NCBI GenBank assembly: GCA_041660165.1
Contig: JBAZWW010000001.1
Location: forward strand, 169,035-233,034
Direction: 5' to 3'
Source of the DNA: Patescibacteria group bacterium
Lineage (GTDB): Bacteria; Patescibacteriota; Patescibacteriia; UBA9934
DNA: 64,000 nt
Shown: positions 1,170 to 59,861 of the stretch, piece after piece
How the letters are laid out: each line of letters begins with the position of its first letter
Numbering within the stretch: position 1 is the stretch's first letter
Program-made: the position numbers and the translations under genes
The notes under the pieces: model-generated
Told to the model about the DNA's origin: nothing
Database searches by the model: none
What the model saw: only the letters and a program-made list of their open reading frames with translations

Positions 1170-1925
1170 ATGCTTGTCTTTGCCGGCTTCATCCCGCATT
1201 CTCCGCTCCTCATGGAGAGCGTAAACACAAAGCGCCTTCATGAGGCAGACAAAACGCTGTCCGCGCTTGATGCGTTTGCTGATGAACTCTTCACAGCGCG
1301 TCCCGATACCATTGTCATTCTGGCTGAAAGCCCCACCATGTATGAGGACGCTTTTTCTCTCAATGTTGCGGATCCATTCACGGCGGATCTCTCGGCGGTG
1401 GGAGATCTTGGCTATCACAAAACGTATCACCCAGACTTTGGCTTTATTGATAGCCTGCAAAGATTCGCCCGCCAAAATAACGTTCCCGTTTCGCTTTCTA
1501 CGGATGAGCATCTGCCGTTTCAGACAACCGTCCCCCTGCATTTTGCCACTCGTCATCTCAAAGATGTCCGGGTCGTCCCCATCGCTCCCTGCAGTCTGGA
1601 CGGTAAGGCGCATTTTGCGTTCGGTAACACGCTTAAGCATTTAGTCATGGATAGTAACAAACGAATCGCAGTCATCGCCTCCGGTGACATGTCCCATGTT
1701 GAAGATGCAGTTTTTGACGAGCGTCTGCTCACCATCCTCAGGGAACATAACGCCTCCGGACTACTCCAGCTTGATCCTGATCTGATTGCAGGCGCAATAG
1801 ACACGTCCTACCGGCAAATCGCCATGCTCTTTGGCGTGCTTGATGGCGTTGGTACCACAGCCGAAGTGCTCAGCTATGAAAAACCTTTCGGCGCTGGTTT
1901 TGCGGTCGTGAACTTTATCCTGTGA
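1170..1925 (+). CDS. LigB-family (class III extradiol dioxygenase / MEMO1-like) protein
   Basis: An ASGDMSH motif (SxDxSH, typical of the LigB/MEMO fold) and DEHLPFQTTVPLHF. No radical-SAM partner is nearby. Confidence 0.5.
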   Translation: MLVFAGFIPHSPLLMESVNTKRLHEADKTLSALDAFADELFTARPDTIVILAESPTMYEDAFSLNVADPFTADLSAVGDLGYHKTYHPDFGFIDSLQRFARQNNVPVSLSTDEHLPFQTTVPLHFATRHLKDVRVVPIAPCSLDGKAHFAFGNTLKHLVMDSNKRIAVIASGDMSHVEDAVFDERLLTILREHNASGLLQLDPDLIAGAIDTSYRQIAMLFGVLDGVGTTAEVLSYEKPFGAGFAVVNFIL

Positions 1926-3718
1926 TCGCTGAAGTGTTTCCTAATCTTCGCCTCCCCCGCCGTTTTTCTTTTTTCGATTACAAAATTCCTGATTCAATGA
2001 CGGTTGCTGTTGGCGACCTGGTGGCGATTCCATTCCGCGGGCGCGAAATCATTGGTCTGGTTGCGCACACAAAAGAAACGTCCGCCGAGCGCAAGCTTTC
2101 ACAACTCGCAAACGTAGTCCACCGAAGCTGGTGCGAACCTGAGGACATCGTCCGCCTAGAAACCATCGCTCGCGCCATCGTGCAATCCCCCGCCAGCCTG
2201 TTTCACGGAATTTTCGATGGGGTAGGAACAAGTGATGCAAAACAAAATTACATAAGACTCTTATATAATTCGCTATCCGTAAAAAAAATTGACGTAGAGC
2301 AAGTGGGCGAGATCTTAAAATCCCCCGATCGAGTCCAGACCGTTTTCGGCGACAAAGTCCTCGGGGCAGTACTCGCAAGCGCGCTCGTCAAAACAACAAC
2401 GGGACAGTGTCTGTTCCTCGTCCCCACTGAAAAGGACGCGAAGGATCTGCAAACGGCTATCAAGTCCTCGGTTGTCTATCACGGTCACATTAAACCGAGG
2501 GACCGAGCCAGCATCGCTCGCGCCTGGCATGAGGGCAAGATCCGCATCCTTGTCGGCACGCGCGGAGCCTCACTCATCCCCGCGCATGAGCTGTCCGCCG
2601 TTGTCGTGCTCGACTCTGCAAACGACGAGCATGCCAGCACTCGCCGTAACCCGCGGTTTGACGCCCGCGAAGCCGTTAAACTACTGGCCTCCCAGCACTC
2701 CGCTCGCCTCTTCTTCGTGGATCCCCTCCCCCGGCTCGAAGAGCTCGCTCCCAGTCTCCCCGCCGTACGGGCGAGGCTCGCCTCGCCCCCTTCATTCCAG
2801 ATCATCGATCTCCGCAACGCTCTCCTCAGATCCGATGATCCCCTCTTAACCGAGCCCCTGCTTGAAGGCATAGAATCCGCTTTACAGAGCGGAAAAAAAG
2901 TGCTACTTTTTCTCAATCGCAAGGGCGTAGCCAAGCGTCTCCAGTGCGGAGCCTGCGGGCACATTCCCCTCTGCGGAACCTGCGGGAACGTTCCCTCCGT
3001 CAGGCTCGATGACCTGGTCTGCGATAGATGCGGAACAGAAATGTGGATCCCTAAAAATTGTCCAGCATGCGGAAAAGCAAAACTGGCCATGAAGGGCATA
3101 GGCGGAGCCAAGATTGCCGAGATCTTGCGCACACGGTTTTCTGACGCCACCGTTGGGCAAATCGAGAAGGGAAAAATTGAAAATCCCTACGCTCCCATCG
3201 TCATTGTCACCGAGTATTTCTTCAGCTCATTCCTTGATCCTTTCAAACACCTGAATCTTGGCCTAGTGGCCGACCTGGCCGGAGACATGGGCATTCACGG
3301 CGCGGACTTTCGCGGGGCCGAGAAAACCGCGCGCAAGTTGCATCGGTTACTCGCCTTCGCCAAACGCGAGAACGCCAACTGCATCTTGCAGACCTGGCTT
3401 CCTGATGTTCTGACGCCCATGTTGAATCTCGATACATTCATCAAAGACGAGCTCGAACTCCGTCAGCGCTATCAGCTCCCGCCGTTCTCCTCAAGATACG
3501 TCCTCGAAGGCGCCAAGATTGGAGAGCTCCCCGAAGCCCTGCGATCAATCGCCCGCGAACATGATGAAACAGTTGAAATTCGACCCCTCGTCACCTCGGG
3601 GTGTGATCCAACCCCTTCTAACCCTTTATCACCCTCTCTAACCCTCCTCCCAGATTCAGTGAAAATCACCCTCGATGGCCCCTATGAAATCCCTCCCCGT
3701 TCTCCACAACCCGAATAA
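1922..3718 (+). CDS. priA: primosomal protein N' (PriA)-like, helicase motifs degenerate
   Basis: The N-terminal 3'-DNA-binding domain (FDYKIPDSMTVAVGDLVAIPFRGREIIGLV) and the PriA Cys4-Cys4 zinc motif (CGACGHIPLCGTCG...CDRCG...CPACG) are present. The Walker A position reads ALVKTT instead of GxGKT. GTG start overlapping the upstream stop (GTGA). Confidence 0.6.
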   Translation: MIAEVFPNLRLPRRFSFFDYKIPDSMTVAVGDLVAIPFRGREIIGLVAHTKETSAERKLSQLANVVHRSWCEPEDIVRLETIARAIVQSPASLFHGIFDGVGTSDAKQNYIRLLYNSLSVKKIDVEQVGEILKSPDRVQTVFGDKVLGAVLASALVKTTTGQCLFLVPTEKDAKDLQTAIKSSVVYHGHIKPRDRASIARAWHEGKIRILVGTRGASLIPAHELSAVVVLDSANDEHASTRRNPRFDAREAVKLLASQHSARLFFVDPLPRLEELAPSLPAVRARLASPPSFQIIDLRNALLRSDDPLLTEPLLEGIESALQSGKKVLLFLNRKGVAKRLQCGACGHIPLCGTCGNVPSVRLDDLVCDRCGTEMWIPKNCPACGKAKLAMKGIGGAKIAEILRTRFSDATVGQIEKGKIENPYAPIVIVTEYFFSSFLDPFKHLNLGLVADLAGDMGIHGADFRGAEKTARKLHRLLAFAKRENANCILQTWLPDVLTPMLNLDTFIKDELELRQRYQLPPFSSRYVLEGAKIGELPEALRSIAREHDETVEIRPLVTSGCDPTPSNPLSPSLTLLPDSVKITLDGPYEIPPRSPQPE

Positions 3719-5016: not shown

Positions 5017-5535
5017 TTAGAGTGGCAGAGCCGAAATTGTGTACGTCCCGGCACAGACCTCCTTTTCGGCGGCATCAGCGCAGGTGAGCGTGGCGGTGTC
5101 TGCACCGTAGGGCACCATCATTTTGCAATCTACATTCTTTCCGTCCACGGTTTTTCCCTTGAAGAGCATGCTTCCTGTGTTGGAGGATGAACGGTCATCA
5201 ATAACCGCACCCTTATCCATCATCATGAAATTATTTCCAGGAGCTGGCGGGGAATATGTAAGCGTGGAGTATGGAAGCTTCGTGACACAGGTGCCAGCAG
5301 GATTTGAAAACGTGAGCGCGCTGTACTTTCCAATGATGCCGAAAAGATCTGACTTCACTTCGGAAAACTTCACTGGGCCTTTTGGCGCTTCCGCAACAGG
5401 TGCCGGGACCTCGGCGGGAACGTTTGCTGTTGGAGCAACATTTGACGAAGGTGAAGGAGCCTGACCTGCACAGCCCGCGCCCGTAAGCGCCACAGCTACC
5501 ACCGCAACTCCGAGAAACTTCCGGTAATCCATCAT
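5017..5535 (-). CDS. hypothetical secreted protein / putative lipoprotein
   Basis: N-terminal signal peptide with an LTGAGC lipobox-like segment, followed by a Pro/Ala-rich region. Confidence 0.4.
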   Translation of the reverse strand: MMDYRKFLGVAVVAVALTGAGCAGQAPSPSSNVAPTANVPAEVPAPVAEAPKGPVKFSEVKSDLFGIIGKYSALTFSNPAGTCVTKLPYSTLTYSPPAPGNNFMMMDKGAVIDDRSSSNTGSMLFKGKTVDGKNVDCKMMVPYGADTATLTCADAAEKEVCAGTYTISALPL

Positions 5536-7118
5536 AAACCATTCTTAAAGAATTTCCTGAAGTATACCAGGGCCGGCTTAAGGGGTGAATACTCGTGATC
5601 AACAGCCTTCACTGTGACTATTTTTCCGCTCGCCCAGCTGTAGAAAATTACTGGTAAAAGGATAAGGCTGAGGCCAAGAGGGTGATTCAAATAAGGGGTG
5701 AAGATATGCGTCACCAGCACAAAAATAATCATCGAAATCATCCCGACAGGGATCCATCTGTCAGCAGATCCTTTTTGTAAAAGATACATTGTAGCGTTAG
5801 CAAAAGAGACGGCAATCGCAAGAACACCCAGAAGGCCGAACACACCCATTTTCAACCAAAGATCCTGATAGCCCCACTCGAATCTGTAGGTAGTCCACTC
5901 TCCAGTTCCATTAATAGCTCTCACTCTCGGATCATCAGATACGAACGTCACTTCTTTCCCAAACCCCGCTCCAATAATTGGCGACTTCATGATCTCGACC
6001 ATCATTGGCGGTAACAAATTCCAACGGCTCGACACAGCTAGTTCGCGCGCTCCCCCATCATCTCCTTTATAAAAGGGGCTGGCCGTAAAGTCAGGCCGAA
6101 TCGGCAACGGGAAAACAACAATGAGCCATAACAACCCTATGGCCGAGCATTGCATGAGACCGAGCACAAATGATCGCAGAACAATCGTCTTCAGCTTTGC
6201 TCGAGTAGCAACGAGCAAAATGATGAACACGAGCGCGCCAATGACCGCGCCGATCATAAAACTTCGGGACAAGCTCGCAGAAATGCCAGCAAGAAGAACG
6301 GCGTGAACAAGCCAAATGTTCTTCTCGATCTTCTCCGAAAAATACGTAGCCGAAGCAAAGATGAACTCAAAAGCAAGAACCACAATTTGGCTCTGCTCGA
6401 ATACTCGGAAGTACCAAGCACCCGTTGGGAATAAACCGGCGAGAGAACTCGGCGCTGTTAAGATGGTGATCTCGGCCAACCGCGCGTCCCGCACAAACGT
6501 GTAGAGATGCGAGAGGAACTTGCCGGGCAAATGCGTAAAGGCGAACAGAAGGCCGAGCGTTGACAAGGCAACCCAAACTGCCGAGACCGCCAGGGTCATC
6601 AGCATCAAGCGCTTCTTCTCACCGTCCCAAGCGATCGAGAGAATCGGCAAGATGTAGAGCACCAAGAGATACGAATTAAAATCGTCAAAGGCCTTGCCCG
6701 GTTCGTTCTGCAGAAAACCAACAATCCCGCCGAGCACAATCGCCGTACCGAATATAATCCACGGCACGTCTCGTCGAGGATTCAATCGCAGTGTCATCCT
6801 GAGCCCGTTCGACGGGCGAAGGATCTGAATTATCCATCCCAGCATCACCCCACCGAATATCACCATCCGAATGGACACCGGCAGACCAATCGACGACAGA
6901 TCAAACAAATGCCCGTGGCCACCAACGAATATCTCGAGGAATGCGAAGGCAAGTCCCCACTCAAGACGCTTAATTGAGAGACCGAGCGCCACCACGAACC
7001 CCGCGGATACGGGAATAATTGACCACCAAGAATGCTGGACAAGCACAGCCAAAAGATGCGCGCCTAGAAGACCGACGAGTACGTACAGTGATCGTTTGTC
7101 GAAGAATTGAGATAGCAT
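5532..7118 (-). CDS. O-antigen ligase (Wzy_C) family polytopic membrane protein
   Basis: About 12 TM helices and an SLSRSFMIGAVIG motif resembling the Wzy_C TxSRgaWlal signature. Start taken at Met22 of the ORF-track protein (MLSQFF) to avoid overlap with the DUF2207 gene. Contains an in-frame repeat-derived segment (see findings). Confidence 0.55.
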   Translation of the reverse strand: MLSQFFDKRSLYVLVGLLGAHLLAVLVQHSWWSIIPVSAGFVVALGLSIKRLEWGLAFAFLEIFVGGHGHLFDLSSIGLPVSIRMVIFGGVMLGWIIQILRPSNGLRMTLRLNPRRDVPWIIFGTAIVLGGIVGFLQNEPGKAFDDFNSYLLVLYILPILSIAWDGEKKRLMLMTLAVSAVWVALSTLGLLFAFTHLPGKFLSHLYTFVRDARLAEITILTAPSSLAGLFPTGAWYFRVFEQSQIVVLAFEFIFASATYFSEKIEKNIWLVHAVLLAGISASLSRSFMIGAVIGALVFIILLVATRAKLKTIVLRSFVLGLMQCSAIGLLWLIVVFPLPIRPDFTASPFYKGDDGGARELAVSSRWNLLPPMMVEIMKSPIIGAGFGKEVTFVSDDPRVRAINGTGEWTTYRFEWGYQDLWLKMGVFGLLGVLAIAVSFANATMYLLQKGSADRWIPVGMISMIIFVLVTHIFTPYLNHPLGLSLILLPVIFYSWASGKIVTVKAVDHEYSPLKPALVYFRKFFKNGL

Positions 7119-7119
7119 A

Positions 7120-8895
7120 TTACCAACTCCCTCCCCCGCCACCGCCCGAACCACCGCCCGACGAACCACCAGAAAACCCACTGCTCGAATGCGGAACCGA
7201 GCTTGTCACCACCTGGCTCCATGAATTATTCAACTGCGCCAGGTTATGCGTCAGCAACATACTTGAAAACGCTCCATGGTTGGCATCCTCATACCACGTT
7301 GGCGCGGTCTTATAGAGCCCCTCAAACTTCGTGGCCCACTGTTCCTCAGCCCCCAACACCATAGCGTACGGCAAGAACTTTTCAAACATTTCCGGCTCCA
7401 GCTTTGGCGCGTTCAAGAGCTTCAGCTTGTCCATCTCCGTCAGCTTCAAAAATTCCTGGAAGCCAGCAATCTTTGCTTGCGCGTCAGCTCCCTTTGGCGT
7501 CAATTGGTTTGTCAGCCGGCCGGAAATCATCATGCGAATAATCACAAACGCCACAATCGGGAACATGAGAAGAATGCCAAGCCCGGCGGTCAAGAAACTT
7601 ACAATGACCGTGCCCACAACCAGGACCGTTGAAATAATCGCCAGCTGTTTATTCATCTTGTCTGCCTTCTCCTTGGCGGAAATATCGAAATAACCCGCAG
7701 TCCGCAAATGCTCCTCTGTCTTGGCCGTAATGTCTTTAATCTGATCCTCGTAATCAAGAGCCTTCTCCATGAGATCACTGACGAGTATGCTCGAACGTTT
7801 GTCGAACAACATATCAAACAAAATCTTCTCACCAGGATGCTTCAACGATGAACCTTCCTTAAGTTTGACGAGCTCAAAATCTTTTTTATCAGGCCAAAAC
7901 GGAATCTCCTTTACGGTATAGCGAATTTTCAGGTAGCCTCGAACAGCGAGATCAAGGATGATCGATGAAACATCTTTCCTATCAACGGATCTATCGAGTA
8001 TTGTGCCCACATCAATCGGCGCCAAACCGTTCGGCGGTTCATACGCCACCACCACCGGCCCTTTGTATCCAGGCTTTGAGAAAATCCTTGAAATAGCAAA
8101 CACGATGAAGCCAATAAGAGAAATGATGAACAAAAGCGGAATTAACAGAAATAACCAATCAGTGCCGGACACCGTAATGTCCTGAATCGTGGAACGCAAT
8201 CCGTCGCTCGGAATAACAGTATCATTCACAATGCCAAGCGGAATGCCGAGTACAATTGTTAAGCCCTCGCCGGCCTCCAGCGGTTTGGTGGTGAAATAAA
8301 TCGCCTTCCCCGGGAAATCAGCCGGCGTGCATTGCTTGTCAGTGCTACCTGCCGGACCAGTAAAACAATCTACCTGCTCAGCCACTGCTGGACCAGGCAC
8401 AAAAACAGAAGCCGAGGCCTTTTTTATCCCTACCGGCCAACCGTTACCCGTCACATTCCAATACAGCTCGTCATGATCCTCAAATGGCCGAATGACATTC
8501 GTCACCGTGTAATCAATCACATACGTCTTCACTCCGCTCACTGTCTTGTTCGCCTCACCGATTTTAAGGTCGAGTATGCTGTTATTCGTTGACTCAACAT
8601 AATGGTACGGCTGGCCGTTTCCGTCTTTCACACTATTCACGCTGATGCCAATGTCAGGGCCGTCAACTGCGGTCAGCGGAATATCGCGAAAAATTCCGTG
8701 CTTCTGATTATCGCCAAAGTTATATTCAATGATCTCGGTCACCTGAATTGCGCCGTCCGCCTGGAGCACGATTGAGGAGGTAAAGTTATCAATCACCTCA
8801 TCACTCGCGTACGCGTTTGCATGAACCGCGAAAAATGCGAAAACGAAAACTCCAAGCGCGCACGCGATTCTGGCAATGCTTCGCTCAGGTTTCAT
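7120..8895 (-). CDS. DUF2207 domain membrane protein
   Basis: Signal peptide, extracellular domain, TM helices and a glycine-rich C-terminus (SGGSSGGGSGGGGGGSW). Lies downstream of LemA, as is typical. Confidence 0.75.
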   Translation of the reverse strand: MKPERSIARIACALGVFVFAFFAVHANAYASDEVIDNFTSSIVLQADGAIQVTEIIEYNFGDNQKHGIFRDIPLTAVDGPDIGISVNSVKDGNGQPYHYVESTNNSILDLKIGEANKTVSGVKTYVIDYTVTNVIRPFEDHDELYWNVTGNGWPVGIKKASASVFVPGPAVAEQVDCFTGPAGSTDKQCTPADFPGKAIYFTTKPLEAGEGLTIVLGIPLGIVNDTVIPSDGLRSTIQDITVSGTDWLFLLIPLLFIISLIGFIVFAISRIFSKPGYKGPVVVAYEPPNGLAPIDVGTILDRSVDRKDVSSIILDLAVRGYLKIRYTVKEIPFWPDKKDFELVKLKEGSSLKHPGEKILFDMLFDKRSSILVSDLMEKALDYEDQIKDITAKTEEHLRTAGYFDISAKEKADKMNKQLAIISTVLVVGTVIVSFLTAGLGILLMFPIVAFVIIRMMISGRLTNQLTPKGADAQAKIAGFQEFLKLTEMDKLKLLNAPKLEPEMFEKFLPYAMVLGAEEQWATKFEGLYKTAPTWYEDANHGAFSSMLLTHNLAQLNNSWSQVVTSSVPHSSSGFSGGSSGGGSGGGGGGSW

Positions 8896-8903
8896 AATCG
8901 TAT

Positions 8904-9467
8904 TTAGAAGGCTACGTTCACGTTCTGCTTTTCCTTCTCCTCGGCCCCAAAGAACTCGCCGGTCTTGAAACCGAGCAATGGAGCGATGATGTTCGAGGGG
9001 AAAACCTGCACCGCATTATTCATCTCACGCACCGTGGCATTGTAGTAACGACGAGCAGACTGAATGTCGTTTTCGAGAGAAGAGAGCTGTTCCTGAAGCT
9101 GTTTGAAATTTTCCGAGGCCTTGAGGTCAGGATAGCCCTCGGCCACTGCAAACAAGCTCTTGAGTGCGCCGGACAACATCGTTTCCGCTTGTGCTCGGCC
9201 AGCAATCGCTCCAGACGGAACGCTCATAGCGTTCGAGCGAGCCTTAGTCACTTCTTCGAGCACCGAGGACTCATGCGCTTTATAACCTTTTACGGTTTCG
9301 ACCAAGTTCGGCACAAGGTCATAACGTCGTTTTAACTGCACATCAATGTCTGACAGCGCGTTCTTCGTTCTGTTTCTGTAGCTCACAAGCTTGTTAAAGA
9401 TGAGCACAATCCAGCCAAGAATCAGCACCCCAACCACTAAAATAAGAATAGGCATATTGTCTGTCAT
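8904..9467 (-). CDS. lemA: LemA family protein
   Basis: N-terminal TM helix, then ALSDIDVQLKRRYDLVPNLVETVKGY, the conserved LemA core. Confidence 0.88.
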   Translation of the reverse strand: MTDNMPILILVVGVLILGWIVLIFNKLVSYRNRTKNALSDIDVQLKRRYDLVPNLVETVKGYKAHESSVLEEVTKARSNAMSVPSGAIAGRAQAETMLSGALKSLFAVAEGYPDLKASENFKQLQEQLSSLENDIQSARRYYNATVREMNNAVQVFPSNIIAPLLGFKTGEFFGAEEKEKQNVNVAF

Positions 9468-9545
9468 CTCGAGCGTAGCGAGAGATCTGATTGGCCGATG
9501 CCCCTGATTGCCAATTCAGATCCCTCCTTACGTCGGGATGACAAT
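9466..9545. repeat. palindromic dispersed repeat (GTCATCYYGAG...GAGAGATCTGATTGGCC family), hairpin-forming
   Basis: GTCATCTCGAGCGTAGCGAGAGATCTGATTGGCC pairs with GCCAATTCAGATCCCTCCTTACGTCGGGATGAC. Intergenic, between lemA and GT2. Confidence 0.7.
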
Positions 9546-9547
9546 AA

Positions 9548-10444
9548 TTAATTTCGTTTTAACCAAGCCGCTACATACGCCAGCACAATAAATTTTGGCG
9601 TGCAGGCCCAAAGTATAAGCCACGGAATAAGGCCGTGATGCTTTTTCATGTACTTGCGCAAACTCGTCCTAATCCATTTCTGCTTACGGAGCGTCGCTAC
9701 CTTGTTGAAGCTGTGGCCCTTGTGGTGGATGATCTCGCAATCGCCATAGGATCTAACTTTGAAGCCCGCATCAACCGCCACTTTGCAGTAGTCAACTTCC
9801 TCGAACCAAATGAAGTAACGCTCGTCGAGCAGGCCAACCTTGTCCATCAGTTCTCGGCGAATAAACATGAACGCGCCCATGATCGAATCAACATCTTGGG
9901 TTTTCAGAGGATCAACGTCGCGCATCATGTACCTGTCAACGGCCTTCAAGTGCTTGAACACGTGAGGTAGTTTGAACAGAATCTCAAGCTGATCGAGCAT
10001 CGTCGGGAACCGGCGAATACTCTCTTGATGCGAACCGTCGGGATATCTGATCACACAACTGCCAATACCCACCTCTTTATCTGCATCAAGGTGATCAATC
10101 ATCCGCTTCATCACTCCGGGCGGAACAATCGTATCCGGATTCAGCAGAAGCGCGTACCGTCCCGTGCATTGTCTCAACCCAACGTTGACCGCCGCTGCAA
10201 ACCCTCGATTCTCCGCGTTCACGATCACCTGCGCCTCCGGTAGGATTTCTCGAACAAACGCCGGCATCTTTTTGTCATTCGCATTATCAACCACCACGAC
10301 GTCAAAATTAACATCATGCGCCGCCGCTAGGCTCATAAAACACGCCCGCAAAACGTCCGGATCAGTTTTGTAGGTAACGATAACTATTGTTGTGTCTCTT
10401 AATTCGGCATTCATAGTGTTTGTCATTGTTGCATCATTCTCCAT
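9548..10444 (-). CDS. glycosyltransferase family 2
   Basis: IVIVTYKTD...VVVVDNAND and LLNPDT (DXD-like) motifs. Confidence 0.85.
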   Translation of the reverse strand: MENDATMTNTMNAELRDTTIVIVTYKTDPDVLRACFMSLAAAHDVNFDVVVVDNANDKKMPAFVREILPEAQVIVNAENRGFAAAVNVGLRQCTGRYALLLNPDTIVPPGVMKRMIDHLDADKEVGIGSCVIRYPDGSHQESIRRFPTMLDQLEILFKLPHVFKHLKAVDRYMMRDVDPLKTQDVDSIMGAFMFIRRELMDKVGLLDERYFIWFEEVDYCKVAVDAGFKVRSYGDCEIIHHKGHSFNKVATLRKQKWIRTSLRKYMKKHHGLIPWLILWACTPKFIVLAYVAAWLKRN

Positions 10445-10520
10445 CCTGAGCGAGAGCGAAGGATCCGCCTTTCCCAGCGGAGAGGGTCGGACCCTTCGGC
10501 CTAAGCCTCAGGGTGGGATG
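10439..10520. repeat. palindromic dispersed repeat, variant copy
   Basis: CATCCTGAGCGAGAGCGAAGGATCC ... GGACCCTTCGGCCTAAGCCTCAGGGTGGGATGG inverted repeat between the two GT2 genes. Confidence 0.6.
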
Positions 10521-10531
10521 GCTCTGCGCTG

Positions 10532-11239
10532 CTACAGACCGTGTTTCCTAGCAATAATCTCTCTCGCCTCAGTGTACTTCTTTATGCTCTTTGGTTGCCA
10601 GGGCGAGTATTGCCAAGGAATCCTGTAGGCGAGTTTTGGCAGCCAGGCCGAGCCGATCCTCGATACCCCGTCAATCCGCACGTGGAAGAGAACTCCCGGC
10701 ACGAGTATCCCTCGATGCCCCCGCTCAAGCATGGTCAACCACACGTCCCAGTCTTGCAGACGCTTGATCTGCTCGTCAAACCCCGGAAAATCTGCCCGCC
10801 GAATGAGCGAGGTGGTGTGGGCAAAGTTCATCTTCCGTATCTTCTCATCACTAAACGGCGTCCCCCAAAATGTCTTCCAGCCAAACGTAAAACCAGAATA
10901 GGCATAACTGGCCTGCGGATTTTGTATAAGACTCTTATGCATTTTTTCGAGCATCTCGTTCTCCATGACAATATCCGCATCGCAAAAAATGACATACTCG
11001 CCTCTACTCTCGGCGAACCCTCGGTTCCTTGCCGGATTCGAGCCTTTATTTTCTTGACGAACAACCTTAATCTTGCCGGCGTATTTTTCGAGTACTTTCA
11101 ATGTCTCATCCGTAGACCCGTCATCAACCACAATGATTTCGATCTCCTTATATGTTTGGTCGAGTACCGAATCAATACACCCCGGCAGTGAGCCCGCGTG
11201 CTGATACGTTGGAATGATGACTGAAATAAGTGGTTCCAT
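10532..11239 (-). CDS. glycosyltransferase family 2
   Basis: ISVIIPTYQHAGSL...IIVVDDGSTDET and FCDADI motifs. Confidence 0.85.
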   Translation of the reverse strand: MEPLISVIIPTYQHAGSLPGCIDSVLDQTYKEIEIIVVDDGSTDETLKVLEKYAGKIKVVRQENKGSNPARNRGFAESRGEYVIFCDADIVMENEMLEKMHKSLIQNPQASYAYSGFTFGWKTFWGTPFSDEKIRKMNFAHTTSLIRRADFPGFDEQIKRLQDWDVWLTMLERGHRGILVPGVLFHVRIDGVSRIGSAWLPKLAYRIPWQYSPWQPKSIKKYTEAREIIARKHGL

Positions 11240-11242
11240 AAC

Positions 11243-11272
11243 CTGTTATAACCCTCTATAACCCTCTATAAC
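11243..11272. repeat. tandem 10-bp repeat ATAACCCTCT x3
   Basis: Direct tandem copies between the GT2 start and the GT4 stop. The GT4 stop codon lies inside the repeat. Confidence 0.7.
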
Positions 11273-12462
11273 CCTCTCACCATGATGATCCCCCTCAGCT
11301 TACTCGTTTGCACTTCTCTTGTGAACTGCTCCAACACTCGTACCCGTCCGCGTGATCCGAGCTTTGATCGGAGTGCCGGATTTTCTACGAGTTTCCTAAT
11401 CGCCGCCTCGATCTCTTCGATGTGGTCATTCACAAGCAACCCCGTTTCTCCGTCGAGTACCGCTTCGACAACGCCCCCAATGTTCGTCGCCACCACCGGC
11501 AAACCGAACAAATTGGCTTCGAGGTACACGATTCCAAATCCTTCGCGATCAGTTTCAGACCGAGTAGTCGGCATCACAAAAATATCCGCTGATGCATAAA
11601 TCCCTGGCAGGTCTTCATCACTCGCGTTCAGAATCATTGTTACTCGATCACTCAATCCTCGGCGAGCAATCTCGGTTTCGAGCCTCTCACGCATCGGCCC
11701 ATCACCCACAATTGTATATTTAACGCCTGGCAAATGTTCCAGTATTTCAAGCACCTTCAGGTGCCCCTTTCTCTCAACCAGCCTCGCCACCGTCAACAGC
11801 ATTATCGTATAGTTATTTACCTTGTCATCTCGACCCATTCTGTCGTCTAGACCCATTCTGTCATCTCGACCCATTCTGTCATCTCGAGCAGAGCGAGAGA
11901 TCTGATTGGTCGACAGTGAGATGGGTACCCCAAGCGCCCCGCTGGCCAGCTTCAGCAACTCTTTCAGATCAACCAGCCCCACGCCCTTCCTCACGGATTT
12001 CGACGCCTCCACAAACACATCACTCACCGGCGGGTAGACCGTCAGGATGCGCCGTAAGGGTCGAGCCATGTCTCGACCCCGTACGAACCGCTCCACCTCG
12101 CCCCTCAAAGCCTCCGAATTCGTCACGATCAGGTCAGCACCTCGCAGAATCCTCCTGGACAACCATCTCTTCCACGCATTTCGTCTGGCGAGATCAAAAT
12201 CCATGCTATGCAGGAATATGCCGTACGGACGAGAAAATATCCACGCCACCGTTCCCACTGGCAAAATATGATTCACGAAATACAGATCTGCATCTTTTCG
12301 AGACTTCCAAAAAAATGAAAATAATTCCTTGTAGCCAGGTTTCTTGGACAGCTCAACCACTTTCACCTCGTGCGGGTATGTTTCAACAACCGCCGAAAGA
12401 TAGCGGGCCACGCCTCCTCGCTCTGAAAGCGCACCAAGCATTGGAGCAATCACGCGCCTCAT
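11266..12462 (-). CDS. glycosyltransferase family 4 with repeat-derived interdomain insertion
   Basis: The C-terminal domain has EGFGIVYLEANLFGLPVVATNIGG. The linker contains RDDRMGRDDRMGLDDRMGRDDK, encoded by the tandem/dispersed repeat at 11824-11925. Confidence 0.85.
   Translation of the reverse strand: MRRVIAPMLGALSERGGVARYLSAVVETYPHEVKVVELSKKPGYKELFSFFWKSRKDADLYFVNHILPVGTVAWIFSRPYGIFLHSMDFDLARRNAWKRWLSRRILRGADLIVTNSEALRGEVERFVRGRDMARPLRRILTVYPPVSDVFVEASKSVRKGVGLVDLKELLKLASGALGVPISLSTNQISRSARDDRMGRDDRMGLDDRMGRDDKVNNYTIMLLTVARLVERKGHLKVLEILEHLPGVKYTIVGDGPMRERLETEIARRGLSDRVTMILNASDEDLPGIYASADIFVMPTTRSETDREGFGIVYLEANLFGLPVVATNIGGVVEAVLDGETGLLVNDHIEEIEAAIRKLVENPALRSKLGSRGRVRVLEQFTREVQTSKLRGIIMVRGL
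11824..11925. repeat. tandem 18-bp repeat x3 plus dispersed palindromic repeat core, inside the GT4 CDS
   Basis: GTCATCTCGACCCATTCT / GTCGTCTAGACCCATTCT / GTCATCTCGACCCATTCT, then GTCATCTCGAGCAGAGCGAGAGATCTGATTGGTCGAC. In frame, the repeat length is a multiple of 3. Confidence 0.75.
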
Positions 12463-23346: not shown

Positions 23347-23473
23347 CCGATCAAGAACGTTCGACTGCTCGTCAATTCTCGTGACCGAAGACCCCGTCCG
23401 CCCGCGCGCGAATGGGGTCGTACTGTTTTATATAAGACTCTTATTATATTAGATGCTTATATAATCCCCTCGG

Positions 23474-25356: not shown

Positions 25357-25413
25357 CTCTAGATCCTTCGCCTACGCTCAGGATCGAATACCACGCAACG
25401 CCACATACAAATA

Positions 25414-27189
25414 TTATCCGAGGATCGCCTTAATTCTCCGCACGCCCGATGACACTGCTTCTTCTTTTTGGATTTTGAATCCGCCAAGTTCGCCAGTATG
25501 TTGCACGTGGGGGCCGCCACAGATTTCTTTCGAGTAATCACCAATGGAGTAGACGTTTATCTTGCCTCCGATATTGGCGTACTTGTCCTCAAACAATCCG
25601 ATCGCACCACTAGCTTTCGCTTCTTCAACAGTCAACTGCTCAGCCTTCACGGGCATGTCTTTTTTGATCTGCTCGTTGACAATGGCCTCAACTTTTGCCA
25701 ACTCGTCCGGCGTCATCTTGGTGTTGTGCGAGAAGTCGAAACGCAAACGCTCGGCAGTAATGTTGCTGCCCTTCTGTTCAACATGGGGACCGAGAACGTC
25801 GCGCAGAGCTTGATGCAAAATGTGCGTCGCGGTGTGTAGGCGAGTTGTTTCGATGGAATGGTCAGCGAGACCACCGGCGAATTTCTTTTCGGCACCTTGG
25901 CGAGAAAGGTCCTGGTGCTTCTTGAACTCGGCAGCGAATGCTTCACGATCAACCTCTTGACCTTGTTCGTGCGCCAGCTCGTGTGTGACCTCGAGCGGAA
26001 AACCGTACGACTGGTAAAGGTTGAACGCATCCTCGCCGGAAATTGCCTTGTTGCGCTCGAACATCTTCTGGAATTCCCTCAGTCCTTGGGCGAGTGTCTT
26101 CTCAAATTTCTTCGCCTCAGTTTCTATGCCGAGAACTATCGCGTCTCGTTTTTCGATCAGCATTGGATACGCCTCGCCGAGGGACGCCACAACATCATCA
26201 ACAATCGGCGGAACGAGCTTGTCGGATTCGATGCCCAGCTTCTTCGCGTGACGGATCGCCCGGCGGATGAGACGACGCAGGATGTAACCCTGGTCCTTGT
26301 TTGATGGCTCGACACCATCCATAAACATGATCGAGGAAGCTCGAAGGTGATCGGCGATGATCCTCATTGACTTGGTTGTCTCCGGCGCTGCGCCATATTC
26401 CAAACCGGATAAATACATAAGAGTCTTATGTAATCCGGTGAACAATTCCGTCTCGTATACATTCGCGCGGTGTTGTAACGCAACGATCGTGCGTTCCATG
26501 CCCATACCGGTGTCCACACTGCCGTTTACAAGCGGGGTTAAAACCCCGCCTTCGTCCTTGTTGAATTGCATGAACACGTTGTTCCAAATTTCCATCCAGC
26601 GATTGTCTTTTGGATCGTAAACTGCTGGCGGTTCTTCAGCACTGGTCCAATAAAAAATCTCCGTGTCCGGTCCGCACGGACCAGTTTTCCCCGCTGGTCC
26701 CCACCAGTTGTCCTCGCGGCCGAGTTTTGCAATGCGCTCGACGGATACGCCAAGACGAATCCAATGATCGTATGCCTCTTGGTCAAATGGCGTGTTCGCG
26801 TCGCCTTCGAAAACTGTAAATGACAAATGCGATAACGGGATGTTGAGCCAATCCTTGCTCGTCAAAAACTCGAATGACCACTCGATAGATTCTTTTTTGA
26901 AATAGTCGCCGAGCGACCAGTTGCCGAGCATGGTGAAAAAAGTGAGGTGCGTGTTATCACCCACGTCATCAATGTCGCCGGTTCTGATACAGCGCTGGTA
27001 ATCAACCAAGCGCTTGCCCGCCGGGTGAGGCTCGCCGAGCAAATACGGGACGAGCGGATGCATGCCCGCCGTGGTAAAAAGCACAGTCGGATCATTCACC
27101 GGCACCACGGAGGCGGAGGGAATCTCCACGTGGCCCTTCGATTTGAAAAACTCAATGTACTTTTTGCGGAGCTCATTCGCGGTGATCAT
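25414..27189 (-). CDS. alaS: alanine--tRNA ligase, short form lacking the C-terminal C-Ala domain
   Basis: MITANELRKKYIEFFKSKGH, FTTAGMHP and GNWSLGDYFK in the catalytic core, and the editing-domain HTATHIL...CGGPHV. About 590 aa from the proper Met. Confidence 0.9.
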   Translation of the reverse strand: MITANELRKKYIEFFKSKGHVEIPSASVVPVNDPTVLFTTAGMHPLVPYLLGEPHPAGKRLVDYQRCIRTGDIDDVGDNTHLTFFTMLGNWSLGDYFKKESIEWSFEFLTSKDWLNIPLSHLSFTVFEGDANTPFDQEAYDHWIRLGVSVERIAKLGREDNWWGPAGKTGPCGPDTEIFYWTSAEEPPAVYDPKDNRWMEIWNNVFMQFNKDEGGVLTPLVNGSVDTGMGMERTIVALQHRANVYETELFTGLHKTLMYLSGLEYGAAPETTKSMRIIADHLRASSIMFMDGVEPSNKDQGYILRRLIRRAIRHAKKLGIESDKLVPPIVDDVVASLGEAYPMLIEKRDAIVLGIETEAKKFEKTLAQGLREFQKMFERNKAISGEDAFNLYQSYGFPLEVTHELAHEQGQEVDREAFAAEFKKHQDLSRQGAEKKFAGGLADHSIETTRLHTATHILHQALRDVLGPHVEQKGSNITAERLRFDFSHNTKMTPDELAKVEAIVNEQIKKDMPVKAEQLTVEEAKASGAIGLFEDKYANIGGKINVYSIGDYSKEICGGPHVQHTGELGGFKIQKEEAVSSGVRRIKAILG

Positions 27190-36780: not shown

Positions 36781-37641
36781 CTATTTCCCAAATCTTCTCT
36801 GTCTCGCCTGGAACGAACGCAACGCTCGCAGAAAATCAATTCGCCGAAAGGCCGGCCAATTCACGTCGAGAAAATAATACTCGCTGTACGCCGCCTGCCA
36901 AAGGAGGAAGCCGGAGAGACGAACCTCGCCGGACGTACGAATGATGAAATCGGGATCGGGGACATTGCAGGAATAAAGATTGGCCGAGAGTGACTCCTCG
37001 GTCAAACCATTAACCGCCTCGCCGAAAGACTTCCCTGACTGTTCAGCACTCGTCAGATACGCTTTGGCTGCATCCACGATCTCCTCGCGACCGCCGTACC
37101 CAAGAGCGAGCTGGACGAGCATGCCTTTTCTCTCGGCGGTAGTTGTTTCAAGTTCGGCAAGTGCTCGTTGTACTTCTTCGGGCATCTGCTCGGTCCGGCC
37201 AATCACCTTCACACGAATGTCGTGCTTCTTGAAATCCTCGTCCAACATCATGGCCTTGGCTTGCTCGACAATTATATCCATCAGCGCTTTCACCTCAGAC
37301 GGCTCGCGCGAAAAATTCTGCGTGCTGAAACCCCAGACAGTAACCACGGGAATCTTAAATTCGATACACCACGAAAAAAGCTGTTTCACTTTCTTCGCCC
37401 CGTATTTATGGCCCTCGACAATTGGCAGACCAAGAGACTTGGCGTATCGCCTGTTGCCGTCAAGAATTACGCCGAGATGCCGTGGCGCAGGACCAAGCAA
37501 CAATTTCTGTGCCAGCCGACGCTCGTACACCTCGTACAAGATTCTTTTAACAATTGCTTTGGGAATATTTTTCATAAATGCACCATAAACGCGAAAGGGT
37601 CGAGACATGGCTCGACCCCTACGCCAAACATCCTTACACAT
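36781..37641 (-). CDS. uppS: isoprenyl transferase (undecaprenyl diphosphate synthase)
   Basis: HLGVILDGNRRYAKSLG and IIRTSGEVRLSGFLLWQAAYSEYYF motifs. Confidence 0.85.
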   Translation of the reverse strand: MCKDVWRRGRAMSRPFRVYGAFMKNIPKAIVKRILYEVYERRLAQKLLLGPAPRHLGVILDGNRRYAKSLGLPIVEGHKYGAKKVKQLFSWCIEFKIPVVTVWGFSTQNFSREPSEVKALMDIIVEQAKAMMLDEDFKKHDIRVKVIGRTEQMPEEVQRALAELETTTAERKGMLVQLALGYGGREEIVDAAKAYLTSAEQSGKSFGEAVNGLTEESLSANLYSCNVPDPDFIIRTSGEVRLSGFLLWQAAYSEYYFLDVNWPAFRRIDFLRALRSFQARQRRFGK

Positions 37642-40465: not shown

Positions 40466-40551
40466 TTGTCATCTCGAGCTTAGCGAGAGATCTGAATTGG
40501 CCGACCAATCAGATCTCTCCTTACGTCGGGATGACACAATAATTATGACAA
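40466..40551. repeat. palindromic dispersed repeat copy
   Basis: GTCATCTCGAGCTTAGCGAGAGATCTGAATTGGCCGACCAATCAGATCTCTCCTTACGTCGGGATGAC, just upstream of the thioredoxin-like gene start. Confidence 0.7.
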
Positions 40552-42950: not shown

Positions 42951-42990
42951 ATATTATATAAGATACTTATATAATAAGAGTCTTATATAT
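42951..42990. promoter_or_regulatory. AT-rich palindromic element containing ATAAGAGTCTTAT, upstream of the MarR gene
   Basis: TATATAAGATACTTATATAATAAGAGTCTTATATAT. A paralogous element lies at 47141-47183 upstream of dus, and a related one at 23428-23465. Confidence 0.45.
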
Positions 42991-47133: not shown

Positions 47134-47172
47134 TCTTCGAAATTTATATAAGTATCTAATATAATAAGAGAC

Positions 47173-48141
47173 TTGTCTATTATGGATCTCGATTGGAAAT
47201 CCCTCCCCCGCCCGATTATCGCCCTTTCCCCCATGGCTGACATGACGGACTCGGCTTTTTGCCGTTTGGTGAAAAAACTCAGTGGAGTTGACGCACCGGT
47301 TGTGTTTCGCGAGATGGTGTCGAGCGAGGCCGTAGTTCGCGGGAACGAAAAAACCCTCGGCATGACTGCCATTCATCCCGACGAGAGACCGCTCGTTCAA
47401 CAAATCTTCGGTTCAGATCCCTCAACGATGGCGGAAGCCGGTAGAATTATCGAGGCCGAGCATCACCCCGAAGGCTTTGATATCAACATGGGCTGTCCCG
47501 TGTACAAAATCGTCCACAATTTTAACGGCGCAGCGCTCATGAAGGATCCCGCCCTAGCCGGCCGAATTATCGAAGCAATGAAAAAGGCCATCACCGTTCC
47601 CCTCTCCGTGAAAATCCGCCTTGGCTGGTCAGACCCCCGCGAGTGCCTCGAGTTCGTAAAAGTACTCGAAGAAGCTGGCGCTGATCTCATCACCATTCAT
47701 GGTCGAACAAAAACCCAAGGTTACTCCGGCGTGGCTGACTGGGCCATGGTTGGCGAGGCAAAAAAACAAGTGAAGATTCCCGTGCTTTGTAACGGCGACG
47801 TTCATACCGCCGAACGGATCGTCGAGGCTCTTAAAGTGTCCGGCGCTGACGGCGTCCTAATCGCTCGTGGCGCCCTTGGCAACCCCTGGATCTTCCGCGA
47901 CTACGCCCTGCTGGCCAGGGGCGAGACTCCGCCCGTCATCACACTCGAAGAACGCATCAGAATAGTGAAACGGCACCTCGACCTACATCTCGAAGAGTAC
48001 GGCGACCACGGTGTCCACACCTTCCGCAAGCATCTCTCTTGGTACTTCAAAGGTCTTCCTGGCGCCAAGGCATATAGAGACCCCATGATGCGGGCTAATA
48101 CAAAGGACGAGCTGCTGAAAATATTAAATGAGGTAAAATAA
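47173..48141 (+). CDS. dus: tRNA-dihydrouridine synthase
   Basis: IALSPMADMTDSAFCRL and DINMGCP motifs. Confidence 0.85.
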   Translation: MSIMDLDWKSLPRPIIALSPMADMTDSAFCRLVKKLSGVDAPVVFREMVSSEAVVRGNEKTLGMTAIHPDERPLVQQIFGSDPSTMAEAGRIIEAEHHPEGFDINMGCPVYKIVHNFNGAALMKDPALAGRIIEAMKKAITVPLSVKIRLGWSDPRECLEFVKVLEEAGADLITIHGRTKTQGYSGVADWAMVGEAKKQVKIPVLCNGDVHTAERIVEALKVSGADGVLIARGALGNPWIFRDYALLARGETPPVITLEERIRIVKRHLDLHLEEYGDHGVHTFRKHLSWYFKGLPGAKAYRDPMMRANTKDELLKILNEVK

Positions 48142-59856: not shown

Positions 59857-59861
59857 CCTGA

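Follow-up and report, generated by a model that had tools for sequence, protein, structure and literature searches.

Hairpin repeats in a Patescibacteria genome as probable members of the CGTC-tagged REP/NTS-SRM superfamily

Introduction

A 64,000-nucleotide stretch of a Patescibacteria contig, hereafter the window, carries a hairpin-forming sequence at several places, both between and within genes, which raises the question of what kind of element it is and which protein may act on it. An initial annotation, made from the sequence alone, named seven places and proposed either an active or recently active nonautonomous element or a REP-like structural motif specific to this lineage, with a REP-associated tyrosine transposase as one example of a cognate enzyme to look for. 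Our analysis shows that the repeats are new Patescibacteria copies of a known kind of element and not a new kind of element. They are probably a small hairpin DNA element of the pan-bacterial CGTC-tagged REP/NTS-SRM superfamily, with an Ssn-type GIY-YIG nuclease as the likely mechanism.

Results

Architecture of the unit and its copies in the window

The window contains 12 copies or fragments of one unit, which on its functional strand reads TGTC-AT-CYY-GA-(variable inner hairpin)-GA-RRG-AT-C-TGA, abbreviated TGTCATCTCGAG...GAGAGATCTGATTGGCC. The unit starts with an unpaired TGTC tag, followed by a stem whose first pairs are A-T and T-A; three pairs that covary come next, or two if a C-G pair, invariant like the first two, is counted apart. 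Within the stem, tandem G·A/A·G mismatches form an internal loop that leads to an inner hairpin of free length, most often a very stable GCGNAGC mini-hairpin, after which the 3′ side continues with AT, an invariant C and TGA. In the common form the GNA loop measures 3 nt, or 5 nt counting the closing C-G pair, and the stem reaches nine stacked positions once both G·A pairs and the inner stem of 2 bp are included. The inner hairpin ranges from 6 to 42 nt among the window units, taking 15–42 nt in five of them. The copies are as follows, with bits denoting covariance model scores.

6792–6829 (+): single unit TGTCATCCTGA-GCCCGTTCGACGGGC-GAAGGATCTGAA, which folds as predicted; in frame in the membrane-protein ORF 5532–7181(-), encoding IQILRPSNGLRMT; 38.1 bits.
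9462–9496 (+): left unit of the doublet 9462–9543, TGTCATCTCGA-GCGTAGC-GAGAGATC plus tail TGATTGGCC; 52.9 bits, the best model match in the window.
9510–9543 (-): right unit of the doublet 9462–9543, TGTCATCCCGA-CGTAAG-GAGGGATC plus TGAATTGGC; 34.1 bits; ssDNA folding of this entry gives -21 and -22.3 kcal/mol, z -5.7 and -5.0.
10440–10521 (no strand assigned): degenerate doublet, left core CATCCTGAGCGAGAGCGAAGGATC intact, tag TCCA instead of TGTC, right end ...CCTCAGGGTGGGATGG; 19.9 bits over model positions 7–28 only; folding z -2.2.
11823–11876 (+): three tandem 18-nt copies of the unit 5′ terminus plus 7 nt (TGTCATCTCGACCCATTC), read in frame within the GT4 gene as (RMGRDD)x3.
11877–11911 (+): full unit, placed in frame in the GT4 glycosyltransferase ORF 11266–12462(-), where it encodes ISRSARDD in the linker that joins the two domains; 49.4 bits.
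25361–25384 (-): tagless unit ttcg-ATCCTGAGCGTAGGCGAAGGATC-tag, located in the spacer that follows the alanyl-tRNA synthetase gene; 22.3 bits at E 4e-4 over model positions 7–29.
40467–40503 (+): left unit of the second doublet, TGTCATCTCGA-GCTTAGC-GAGAGATC plus TGAATTGGCC; 48.8 bits.
40503–40536 (-): right unit of the second doublet, TGTCATCCCGA-CGTAAG-GAGAGATC, whose arms contain a single mismatch; 24.6 bits.
59851–59865 (+): terminal fragment TGTCATCCTGAGACC, which begins with TGTC and is not a full unit.
59874–59918 (+): unit with a 17-nt inner hairpin, TGTCATCTCGA-GTCCCGTCCGACGGGAC-GAGAGATC plus TAATTGGCC; 32 bits.
60002–60038 (-): unit TGTCATCTCGA-GGCCGTCTGAAGGCC-GAGAGATCTGA; 35.8 bits.
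60098–60159 (-): unit whose inner insert is branched and 42 nt long, TGTCATCCTGA-...-GAGGGATC plus TGATCGGCC, 39 nt past the stop codon of a TraG-like gene.

All seven places named in the initial annotation hold the repeat, and the dispersed hairpin family it described is real. Its copy list missed 25361–25384(-) and did not give the full unit 60002–60038(-) separately; 59851–59865 is a terminal fragment only, its copy at 11824–11925 resolves into the three 5′-terminus copies followed by one full unit, and its variant at 10439–10520 into a degenerate doublet with a damaged tag. The palindromes of 2 × 33 nt with a central GATCTGATTGGCC/GGCCAATCAGATC that it reported are found at 9462–9543 and 40467–40536. 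The name O-antigen ligase for ORF 5532–7181 lacks backing from Pfam, which gives no match.

TGTC precedes the stem in nine of 11 unit cores and is degenerate at 10440 (TCCA) and 25361 (TTCG). GTC, the A-T/T-A/C-G stem base and the C after the closing AT are present in all units of the strict definition given below, and also in units on which the search pattern did not force them, i.e., the doublet partners and the model matches 9514(-) and 40507(-).

Two pairs of units form palindromes of about 75–80 nt. The doublet 9462–9543 fills the spacer between the stop codon of a GT2 gene (9548) and the start codon of LemA (9455), and the doublet 40467–40536 separates two genes transcribed in opposite directions away from it, one of whose start codons is 8 nt away. 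Units 59874–59918(+) and 60002–60038(-) enclose an 83-nt spacer. The gene-boundary placement proposed at first applies to several copies, but two of the 12 lie inside genes, both in frame. Copies group at 6.8–11.9 kb, 25.4 kb, 40.5 kb and 59.85–60.16 kb, and the contig holds no further copy in the sequence bordering the window, 8.8 kb on the left and 9.3 kb on the right; because these flanks are empty, the repeat is clustered and not evenly spaced, contrary to the suggested density of one per 9 kb. The tail or spacer TGATTGGCC, which also occurs on contigs L131, L142, L176 and L181, is apparently local.

Enrichment, folding and covariation of the unit

We defined a strict unit as [CT]GTCA-TYYY-GA-N4-50-GA-RRRA-TC with complementary arms. 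This definition gives nine matches, corresponding to eight distinct units, in the window and none in 100 dinucleotide shuffles. With one mismatch allowed, GTCATCYYGAG has 17 matches in the window against 3.7 expected, and a covariance model run with filters off yields 10 window matches at E<0.01, leaving unit 60098–60159(-) unreported because of its long inner insert. The 13-nt tail motif, taken alone, is weakly enriched (six matches vs 2.2 expected), as would suit a chance similarity or a local duplication confined to the window. However, the empty shuffles, together with copies on the related contigs L001, L002, L131, L142, L176 and L181 and in many phyla and with the stem covariation described below, reduce that explanation to a negligible probability and settle the question, raised at the outset, of whether the repeat is dispersed.

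The doublets 9462–9543 and 40467–40536 fold as ssDNA at -20 to -22 kcal/mol, with z of -5.0 to -6.5 overall and -6.3 to -6.5 for the latter. Among the genome-collection matches listed, YY and RR are Watson-Crick complementary in 132 of 142 (93%), in a search whose pattern did not require this complementarity. Across 93 distinct units, 96.5% of cells pair, compensatory changes occur at all four variable pairs, and double-change cells number 90 vs 27.9 in shuffles, none of 500 shuffles reaching 90. Selection for the hairpin acts on the unit. Because G·T pairs are very rare, at 3 of 651 cells, and the GA·AG loop occurs on one strand only, the constraint looks like a DNA-level, one-strand constraint.

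Several copies separate genes that run in the same direction and come within a few nucleotides of a stop or start codon, as might be expected of an RNA-level element whose transcribed hairpins serve as mRNA stabilisers, processing sites, attenuators or terminators in operons, and such roles are argued for REPs generally by Di Nocera et al. (Di Nocera, De Gregorio & Rocco 2013, BMC Genomics 14:522, PMC3733652). Yet copies run both with and against transcription and are also found within genes and between divergent ones, their strand-specific conservation does not seem to follow the direction of transcription, G·U pairs are near-absent, and the GIY-YIG nuclease SsnA fails to bind its motif when this is RNA (Chenal 2025, Nat Commun 16:2388, PMC11893778). 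Rfam likewise reports only two tRNAs in the window at gathering thresholds and no match at E≤10 over 9380–9620. An RNA-level element is thus unlikely, and secondary RNA effects may accompany a DNA role. The tandem GA and the junction-like fold of the doublets also brought up ribozymes (hammerhead, twister and hairpin ribozyme), which were rejected since their conserved cores do not fit and Rfam is empty at E≤10. A kink-turn was rejected as well, as the 2-nt TC bulge stands four pairs from the G·A pairs.

Gain, loss and conservation among relatives

The GT2b–LemA junction, occupied here by the doublet 9462–9543, is empty in the related genomes L001 and L002, and the GT2a–GT2b junction holds nothing in L002, a canonical doublet in L001 and the degenerate doublet here. 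Copies have been gained or lost, because related genomes carry empty sites. Filled and empty sites are also what a MITE from a DDE insertion sequence would leave, with the TGTCATC...GATGACA ends as terminal inverted repeats, and the doublets do have inverted termini of about 33 bp within a length of 70–165 bp. However, single units equal doublets in frequency, the internal covariation of the arms would be superfluous in a terminal repeat bound by a transposase, and no parent element or transposase lies between units in 193 loci. The target-site duplication that the initial annotation proposed to look for is absent at the single resolvable filled/empty pair (GT2b–LemA), where the flanks are TTAT and GACA. 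Taken together, a MITE is highly improbable.

Both in-gene copies have conserved orthologous counterparts in a relative with 56–66% protein identity. The 39-nt block of unit 6792–6829 with two flanking nucleotides (6790–6830) is identical at 38 of 39 nt in the L002 ortholog, the proteins being 66% identical, and in the L002 ortholog of unit 11877–11911 a compensatory arm pair TCCT/AGGA replaces TCTC/GAGA. The in-gene copies are old and conserved, and that they are far better conserved than their flanks could be due to selection acting on the encoded peptide and not on the DNA. Given these copies, the suggestion of recent activity holds only in part. The insert of the GT4 gene (11877–11911) is absent from most homologues, and the 18-nt tandem repeat in this gene has three copies here, one in L001 and none in L002. 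Tandem duplications of the 5′ terminus are found upstream of 28 of 367 units (7.6%) vs downstream of one (0.3%), with a period of 16–44 nt and upstream breakpoints 5–11 nt 5′ of GTC. L200, a contig assembled from short reads of another sample, comes from the same strain; it breaks inside unit 60098–60159 and, ending within a unit, gave no empty site.

Distribution of the unit and its recurrent GIY-YIG neighbour

The 29-nt core is near-identical in Clostridia, Bacteroidota, Proteobacteria, Chloroflexota, Acidobacteriota, Patescibacteria and others. A single narrow pattern run over the genome collection has most bacterial phyla among the matches listed, and the GA·AG-type unit is found in at least twelve or so named bacterial lineages, ranked from phylum down to order, Patescibacteria included, the base 5′ of GTC in other genomes being mostly T and sometimes C. 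Hence the element is not specific to this lineage, as had been supposed; its tail or spacer alone seems local. A scan of viral contigs with the unit gave 12 stretches. Literal sequence strings searched in the literature returned primers only.

In a neighbour-gene survey of 193 loci fetched by the unit pattern alone, one gene family and no other is seen repeatedly next to units in unrelated loci, a single-domain GIY-YIG protein of 93–104 aa (PF01541); ORF clustering near units in the first 119 loci showed no family in more than four loci. The six GIY-YIG loci (L042, L116, L127, L129, L132 and L134) have units 3–50 nt from the ORF, on both sides in five of the six, and in L129 the ORF is cut by the contig end, with a unit on the one visible side. 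Genes of this kind are flanked on both sides by the unit type in other organisms, Patescibacteria included. The L132 protein, whose flanking units TGTCATCTCGAGCGAAGTCGAGAGATC differ from the window units in the inner hairpin only, has 6924 homologues at E≤1e-10, many of them named Moranbacteria or Patescibacteria, so that the family is encoded in Patescibacteria generally. The solved structure nearest to the flanked proteins is UPF0213 BH0048 (E 0.008). No GIY-YIG ORF (Ssn-like, second common Patescibacteria type, UPF0213) was found in the window and its 18 kb of flanks, i.e., 82 kb of the 229-kb contig.

This recurrence bears on whether the unit is a classical REP/REPIN moved by a RAYT, an HUH-Y1 enzyme that recognises a hairpin and a 5′ tetranucleotide on ssDNA. 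The REPIN-like inverted doublets, the ssDNA hairpin folding, the varying presence between relatives and the known in-frame gene insertions of REPs (Quentin 2018, PMC6006769) are all compatible with such an enzyme. In contrast, GIY-YIG is the sole recurring neighbour in the 193 loci, the unit has the tag TGTC and the foot TGTC-AT instead of GT[AG]G, and the Pfam-annotated gene calls over 82 kb include no transposase family. Every REP type of Quentin et al. either has GT[AG]G or counts as "atypical", the latter being confined to other taxa (PMC6006769), and Di Nocera et al. report that no transposase was found in association with CGTC-tagged REPs (PMC3733652). We consider movement by a RAYT improbable, and a REP-associated tyrosine transposase is probably the wrong partner; in kind, the proposed REP-like motif or nonautonomous element was right, as the covarying stems, inverted doublets and varied presence in relatives show.

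Discussion

Our preferred reading, a hairpin element of the CGTC-tagged REP/NTS-SRM superfamily, suggests the following mechanism. At an ssDNA stage, the GA-bearing strand would fold into a hairpin, and a single-domain GIY-YIG nuclease of the Ssn type, about 95 aa long, would bind the folded strand and nick it a few nucleotides 5′ of the tag. The nuclease, or repair of its nicks, would spread the units, and the 5′ tandem duplications would be by-products of its cutting. We infer that a gene for such a nuclease is, or once was, present in this genome beyond the visible 82 kb. Hints of one-strand cutting upstream of the motif are seen in the one-strand GA·AG loop and the 5′-polar terminal duplications. 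More tentatively, the GA·AG hairpin might be a distinct SRM class, possibly the most widespread and unseen by the published string, with the 5′ duplications as in vivo footprints of Ssn cutting and repair, in a system that also makes minisatellites and in-frame peptide modules in host genes, beyond restricting incoming ssDNA; we regard this extended proposal as possible and somewhat doubtful.

A conspicuous Patescibacteria repeat is thereby explained by the CGTC-REP/SRM superfamily without invoking a new element, and the likely protein partner of this superfamily, a nuclease of GIY-YIG type that acts on single strands, came to light only in 2025. Patescibacteria presumably rely on taking up DNA, which makes a single-strand restriction or editing system there worth testing. 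Since the published SRM string misses the GA·AG variant, censuses of Ssn systems are probably too low, and the 5′-polar terminal duplications may offer a cheap, testable genomic signature of the in vivo nuclease cut site. For genome analysis, units break short-read assemblies, and their GATGAC end creates false upstream ATG starts, as in the LemA, GT2 and dnaX ORFs: the conserved LemA start is 9455, and GATGAC of the fragment 59851–59865, on the opposite strand, supplies the upstream in-frame ATG of the longest dnaX ORF. Units also add short peptides to real proteins, and annotators of candidate-phyla genomes should mask them.

Comparison with known systems

Rickettsia palindromic elements (RPE-1 and relatives) resemble the units in being in-frame palindromic repeats within coding genes, where they add 10–30 residues in loops or linkers without destroying the gene; yet RPE-1 measures 100–150 bp and is lineage-restricted, whereas the units here measure 30–60 nt and are pan-bacterial. 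REPs and REPINs with their RAYTs (Nunvar 2010; Bertels & Rainey 2011; Ton-Hoang 2012; Quentin 2018, PMC6006769) share the short hairpin repeats, doublets that form long hairpins, an ssDNA active form, a domesticated single-copy enzyme with its own repeats on either side, and tolerance of in-frame linker insertions. They differ in the GT[AG]G tag and HUH-Y1 enzyme fold, as opposed to TGTC and GIY-YIG here, and in that REP sequences co-evolve with the RAYT and vary between genera, whereas the unit core is near-identical across phyla.

CGTC-tagged REPs, as described in the text of Di Nocera et al., have the tag CGTC or its variants TGTC and CCTC, an 8–9-bp stem whose first pairs are A-T and T-A, a 4–5-nt loop and a 3-nt unpaired tail of consensus CCA; the superfamily includes Rickettsia RPE-4 and RPE-6, the only two RPEs in it (PMC3733652). 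On this description, the unit agrees with them in the unpaired CGTC/TGTC tag, and the stem of 8–9 positions starting from A-T and T-A; a short loop with a short unpaired tail may be a further likeness. Also common to both are frequent inverted dimers with a structured spacer (here 9462–9543, 40467–40536 and the degenerate 10440–10521), and in-frame gene copies, replication genes included (here in ORF 5532–7181 and the GT4 ORF), with no adjacent transposase. The unit departs from them in the long inner hairpins of many copies (up to about 45 nt vs a 4–5-nt loop), in its tail CTG(A) instead of CCA, in a tandem G·A mismatch that the text of that paper leaves unmentioned, and in the GA variant occurring in many more phyla than the five listed there (PMC3733652).

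The NTS, published as CGTCATTCCCGCGMAVGCGGGAATCYRG, or "Ssn-related motif" (SRM) is bound as ssDNA by SsnA, which cuts just upstream, acts on one strand only and tolerates loop changes, and in Neisseria Ssn restricts transforming single-stranded DNA (PMC11893778). The Neisseria dRS3 repeat is listed with the NTS/SRM and SsnA system. Mutagenesis identified as SRM determinants the GTC upstream of the palindrome, the C right after it, the hairpin and a dispensable loop (PMC11893778), and strict units have them all: GTC, post-palindrome C, hairpin and a varying loop. The SRM search string HGTCWYN(0-2)YYVSBRHN(0-5)WNVSBRGN(0-2)RNCYNB (PMC11893778) has no match in the window (0.33 expected by chance) and none among 388 GA-type units, with all three NTS variant controls matching. 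It fails on the units because of the GA·AG internal loop, and since none of the 388 match it, membership in the SRM rests on architecture and gene association and not on the published definition.

The unit differs from the SRM in the tandem G·A/A·G internal loop and inner mini-hairpin in its stem, in its tail (TGA vs YRG) and in its in-gene share, which is 2 of 12 here vs about 2% reported for Neisseria (PMC11893778); Patescibacteria, the host phylum here, go unmentioned in the main text of Chenal 2025. What the two share is the (C/T)GTC tag, AT at both ends of the palindrome, the invariant C that directly follows the palindrome, a variable or extendable loop, an orientation in which one strand is meaningful, dispersal in clusters, and small single-domain GIY-YIG genes flanked on both sides by the motif.

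An oriented hairpin unit underlies the repeat

The 82-nt imperfect palindrome at 9462-9543, flagged as 9466-9545 in the initial annotation, is formed by two inverted copies of one unit, which on its own strand reads TGTC-AT-CYY-GA-[inner hairpin]-GA-RRG-AT-C-TGA; in this lineage TTGGCC then adjoins its TGA. The repeat is confirmed: the unit is present in all seven places at which copies had been listed, and under a strict definition 8 distinct units are found in the window versus 0 in 100 dinucleotide-preserving shuffles. A covariance model made from 93 units of this kind, taken from many genomes, detects 10 window places at E<0.01, among them a tag-less unit missed on the first reading. Adding a long-insert unit and a terminal fragment brings the window total to 12 units or fragments. 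They group into four stretches (6.8-11.9 kb, 25.4 kb, 40.5 kb and 59.85-60.16 kb), and no further units occur in the 18 kb of flanks. Folded as single-stranded DNA, the doublets reach about -21 kcal/mol (z -5.0 to -6.5).

Units and fragments in the window
6792-6829: unit in frame inside a gene (membrane-protein ORF)
9462-9543: units between co-directional genes
10440-10521: units between co-directional genes
11823-11911: units in frame inside a gene (glycosyltransferase ORF GT4)
25361-25384, minus strand: tag-less unit, covariance model
40467-40536: unit between divergent genes
59851-60159: units between co-directional genes, among them the two entries below
59851-59865: terminal fragment
60098-60159: long-insert unit

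The window corresponds to 26317-90316 of ena:ERZ27249449:k141_176793, a metagenome contig of 228,962 bp. Gene calls in the window and its 18 kb of flanks are ordinary housekeeping genes, and proteins homologous to GT4 carry Patescibacteria or Uhrbacteria names. The opposite strand of the unit terminus reads GATGAC and thereby supplies the LemA, GT2b and dnaX ORFs with upstream ATGs in frame (at 9455-9467, 10409-10444 and 59842-59856, just upstream of the conserved starts), so the longest-ORF and some gene-caller starts of these three are probably 4-12 codons too long; alignment with relatives places the true LemA start at the conserved ATG at 9455. In a short-read assembly from a second sample containing this strain (logan:SRR18595301), a 4639-nt contig ends at window position 60112, inside the unit 60098-60159; the repeat therefore breaks assemblies.

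Copies differ among relatives

Two syntenic contigs of relatives were found, L001 (GT4 83% identical) and L002 (GT4 56%). At the GT2b-LemA junction both carry 8-15 nt and no element, versus the 82-nt doublet in the window, and no target-site duplication is visible there. The GT2a-GT2b junction is empty in L002, holds a canonical doublet plus extra terminal fragments in L001, and holds a degenerate doublet in the window. The two junctions are filled differently in the three sequences, so copies are acquired and lost over the period of a genus-level divergence. The GT4 linker unit occupies the same position in all three, its arms showing a compensatory change (TCTC/GAGA versus TCCT/AGGA), and distant GT4 homologues are without the linker insert. 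In the membrane-protein ORF, the unit with 2 flanking nucleotides is identical at 38 of 39 nt between the window and L002, in proteins just 66% identical.

Other repeats in the window

A 22-nt near-perfect palindrome, GGGTCGAGNCATGNCTCGACCC, lies at 12058-12079 and 37597-37618 (2 versus 0.01 expected). At 12058-12079 it is read in frame within the GT4 N-terminal domain, encoding RGRDMARP, in a stretch gapped in most homologues; as GT4 also has the linker unit, two repeat families seem to have contributed inserts to it.

A 43-nt repeat, 93% identical, lies inverted inside two genes on opposite strands, at 3605-3647(+), the 3' end of a PriA-like ORF (1922-3718), and at 58461-58503(-), the dnaX (58144-59856) linker. 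The two host genes both belong to replication, and the repeat is read in the same sense in each, encoding ...NPLSPSLTL...; just before either copy stands a short sequence resembling a degenerate unit (…GTCRYC…GGGGTG(T)GATC). A 30-nt inverted repeat, 90% complementary (ACCCCGACGACAGGAGGGGTAGCCTTGGTG), links 58505-58534, in the dnaX linker adjoining the 43-nt repeat, with 60053-60082, which separates units 60002-60038 and 60098-60159 of the intergenic cluster. Finally, an AT-rich palindrome matches six times versus 0.01 expected, sometimes doubled into blocks of ~38 nt (repeat families D2, D5, I2 and I3); in this lineage it could serve as operator, promoter or terminator.

Window matches of TATAAGA(C/G)TCTTATA
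2251-2265
10925-10939
23431-23445
26416-26430
42957-42987
47144-47181

The unit is pan-bacterial and its stem covaries

Scanning a single genome for each species with GTCATCYYGAN{4,30}GARRGATCTGA, which imposes no complementarity, gave at least 119 stretches. The matches listed come from Clostridia, Bacteroidota, several proteobacterial classes, Chloroflexota, Acidobacteriota, Verrucomicrobiota, Planctomycetota, Armatimonadota, Gemmatimonadota, Nitrospirota, Omnitrophota and six Patescibacteria. The unit is thus pan-bacterial, and the initial suggestion of a lineage-specific motif fails, as many phyla among the matches listed carry the same unit. The same pattern gave 12 stretches in 2.9 million IMG/VR viral contigs versus the at least 119 in bacterial genomes, the two scans not being normalised.

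The YY and RR positions are Watson-Crick complementary in 132 of the 142 matches listed (chance expectation 25%). In a set of 93 distinct units whose inner hairpin is 7 nt long, 96.5% of cells are paired, all four variable pairs show compensatory changes, and double-change cells number 90 versus 27.9 in shuffles, none of 500 shuffles reaching 90; pairing collapses to 10-47% in slid controls. G·T pairs are almost absent from the stems and only one strand has the tandem G·A/A·G loop; both observations point to a constraint on DNA, and on one strand of it. The commonest inner hairpins, GCGAAGC, GCGTAGC and GCGCAGC, are the d(GCGNAGC) mini-hairpin, known for its unusual stability.

GIY-YIG genes recur beside units

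We surveyed neighbours in 193 listed loci fetched by unit pattern alone, 119 from genomes and 74 from metagenomes (pattern GTCATCTCGAGN{4,30}GAGAGATCTGA), clustering all ORFs within 300 nt of units. A single-domain GIY-YIG ORF (PF01541) of 93-104 aa occurs in 6 of these loci; units lie 3-50 nt from it on both sides in five, and for the sixth, L129, the contig stops within the ORF, leaving one side visible. Larger ORF clusters represent one orthologous locus sampled repeatedly. For one flanked protein, ACD_9C00313G0005, 6924 homologues reach E<=1e-10, many of them carrying a Moranbacteria or Patescibacteria name, and its flanking units (TGTCATCTCGAGCGAAGTCGAGAGATC) differ from window units solely in the inner hairpin. 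In two metagenome contigs (L183 4540-4839, L191 5823-6083) a second small GIY-YIG type (…RREKYLKS…) occurs, not next to units but 1-4 kb away; its similarity to the flanked type is only remote (E 1e-5 to 7e-4).

The initial view of the element as REP-like and nonautonomous stands. The REP-associated tyrosine transposase suggested with it is probably not the partner: gene calls in the window and flanks include no transposase, and among the 193 loci listed GIY-YIG is the only family recurring across unrelated loci. The units would act as folded single-stranded DNA, with an Ssn-type GIY-YIG nuclease as the likely protein partner; it would be encoded outside the window and its 18 kb of flanks, which, like their gene calls, contain no GIY-YIG ORF.

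Comparison with known systems

CGTC-tagged REPs, defined by Di Nocera et al. 2013, have an unpaired CGTC or TGTC tag, a stem of 8-9 bp beginning with A-T and T-A pairs, a short loop and a 3-nt tail; inverted dimers predominate, intragenic in-frame copies exist (e.g., Rickettsia RPE-4/-6, Neisseria dRS3), and the elements occur in five phyla without a dedicated transposase (PMC3733652). SsnA is a 94-aa single-domain GIY-YIG nuclease that binds only the single-stranded form, and one strand only, of the oriented Neisseria motif (NTS), CGTCATTCCCGCGMAVGCGGGAATCYRG, and cuts a few nucleotides upstream of it. Cutting is affected by the three nucleotides that precede the palindrome and binding by the C that follows it, the loop is dispensable and may be lengthened, and ssn genes are typically flanked by NTS-type motifs (Chenal et al. 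2025, PMC11893778). A structure search found no solved Ssn structure.

Among 367 full units from many phyla, 28 have same-orientation partial copies of their 5' terminus within 45 nt upstream, and 1 has them downstream. Most are tandem arrays that repeat every 16-23 nt (range 16-44); the 3 x 18-nt array of the window's GT4 gene is an example, with 3, 1 and 0 copies of the terminal repeat in the window, L001 and L002. SsnA likewise cuts on the upstream side, and the two may be linked.

The published degenerate string for Ssn-related motifs gives 0 window matches and matches 0 of 388 GA-type units, because their G·A/A·G internal loop violates it; NTS controls match. However, the window unit appears to share every determinant named for NTS, and the repeats are best explained as a Patescibacteria family of CGTC-tagged REP / Ssn-related hairpin motifs.
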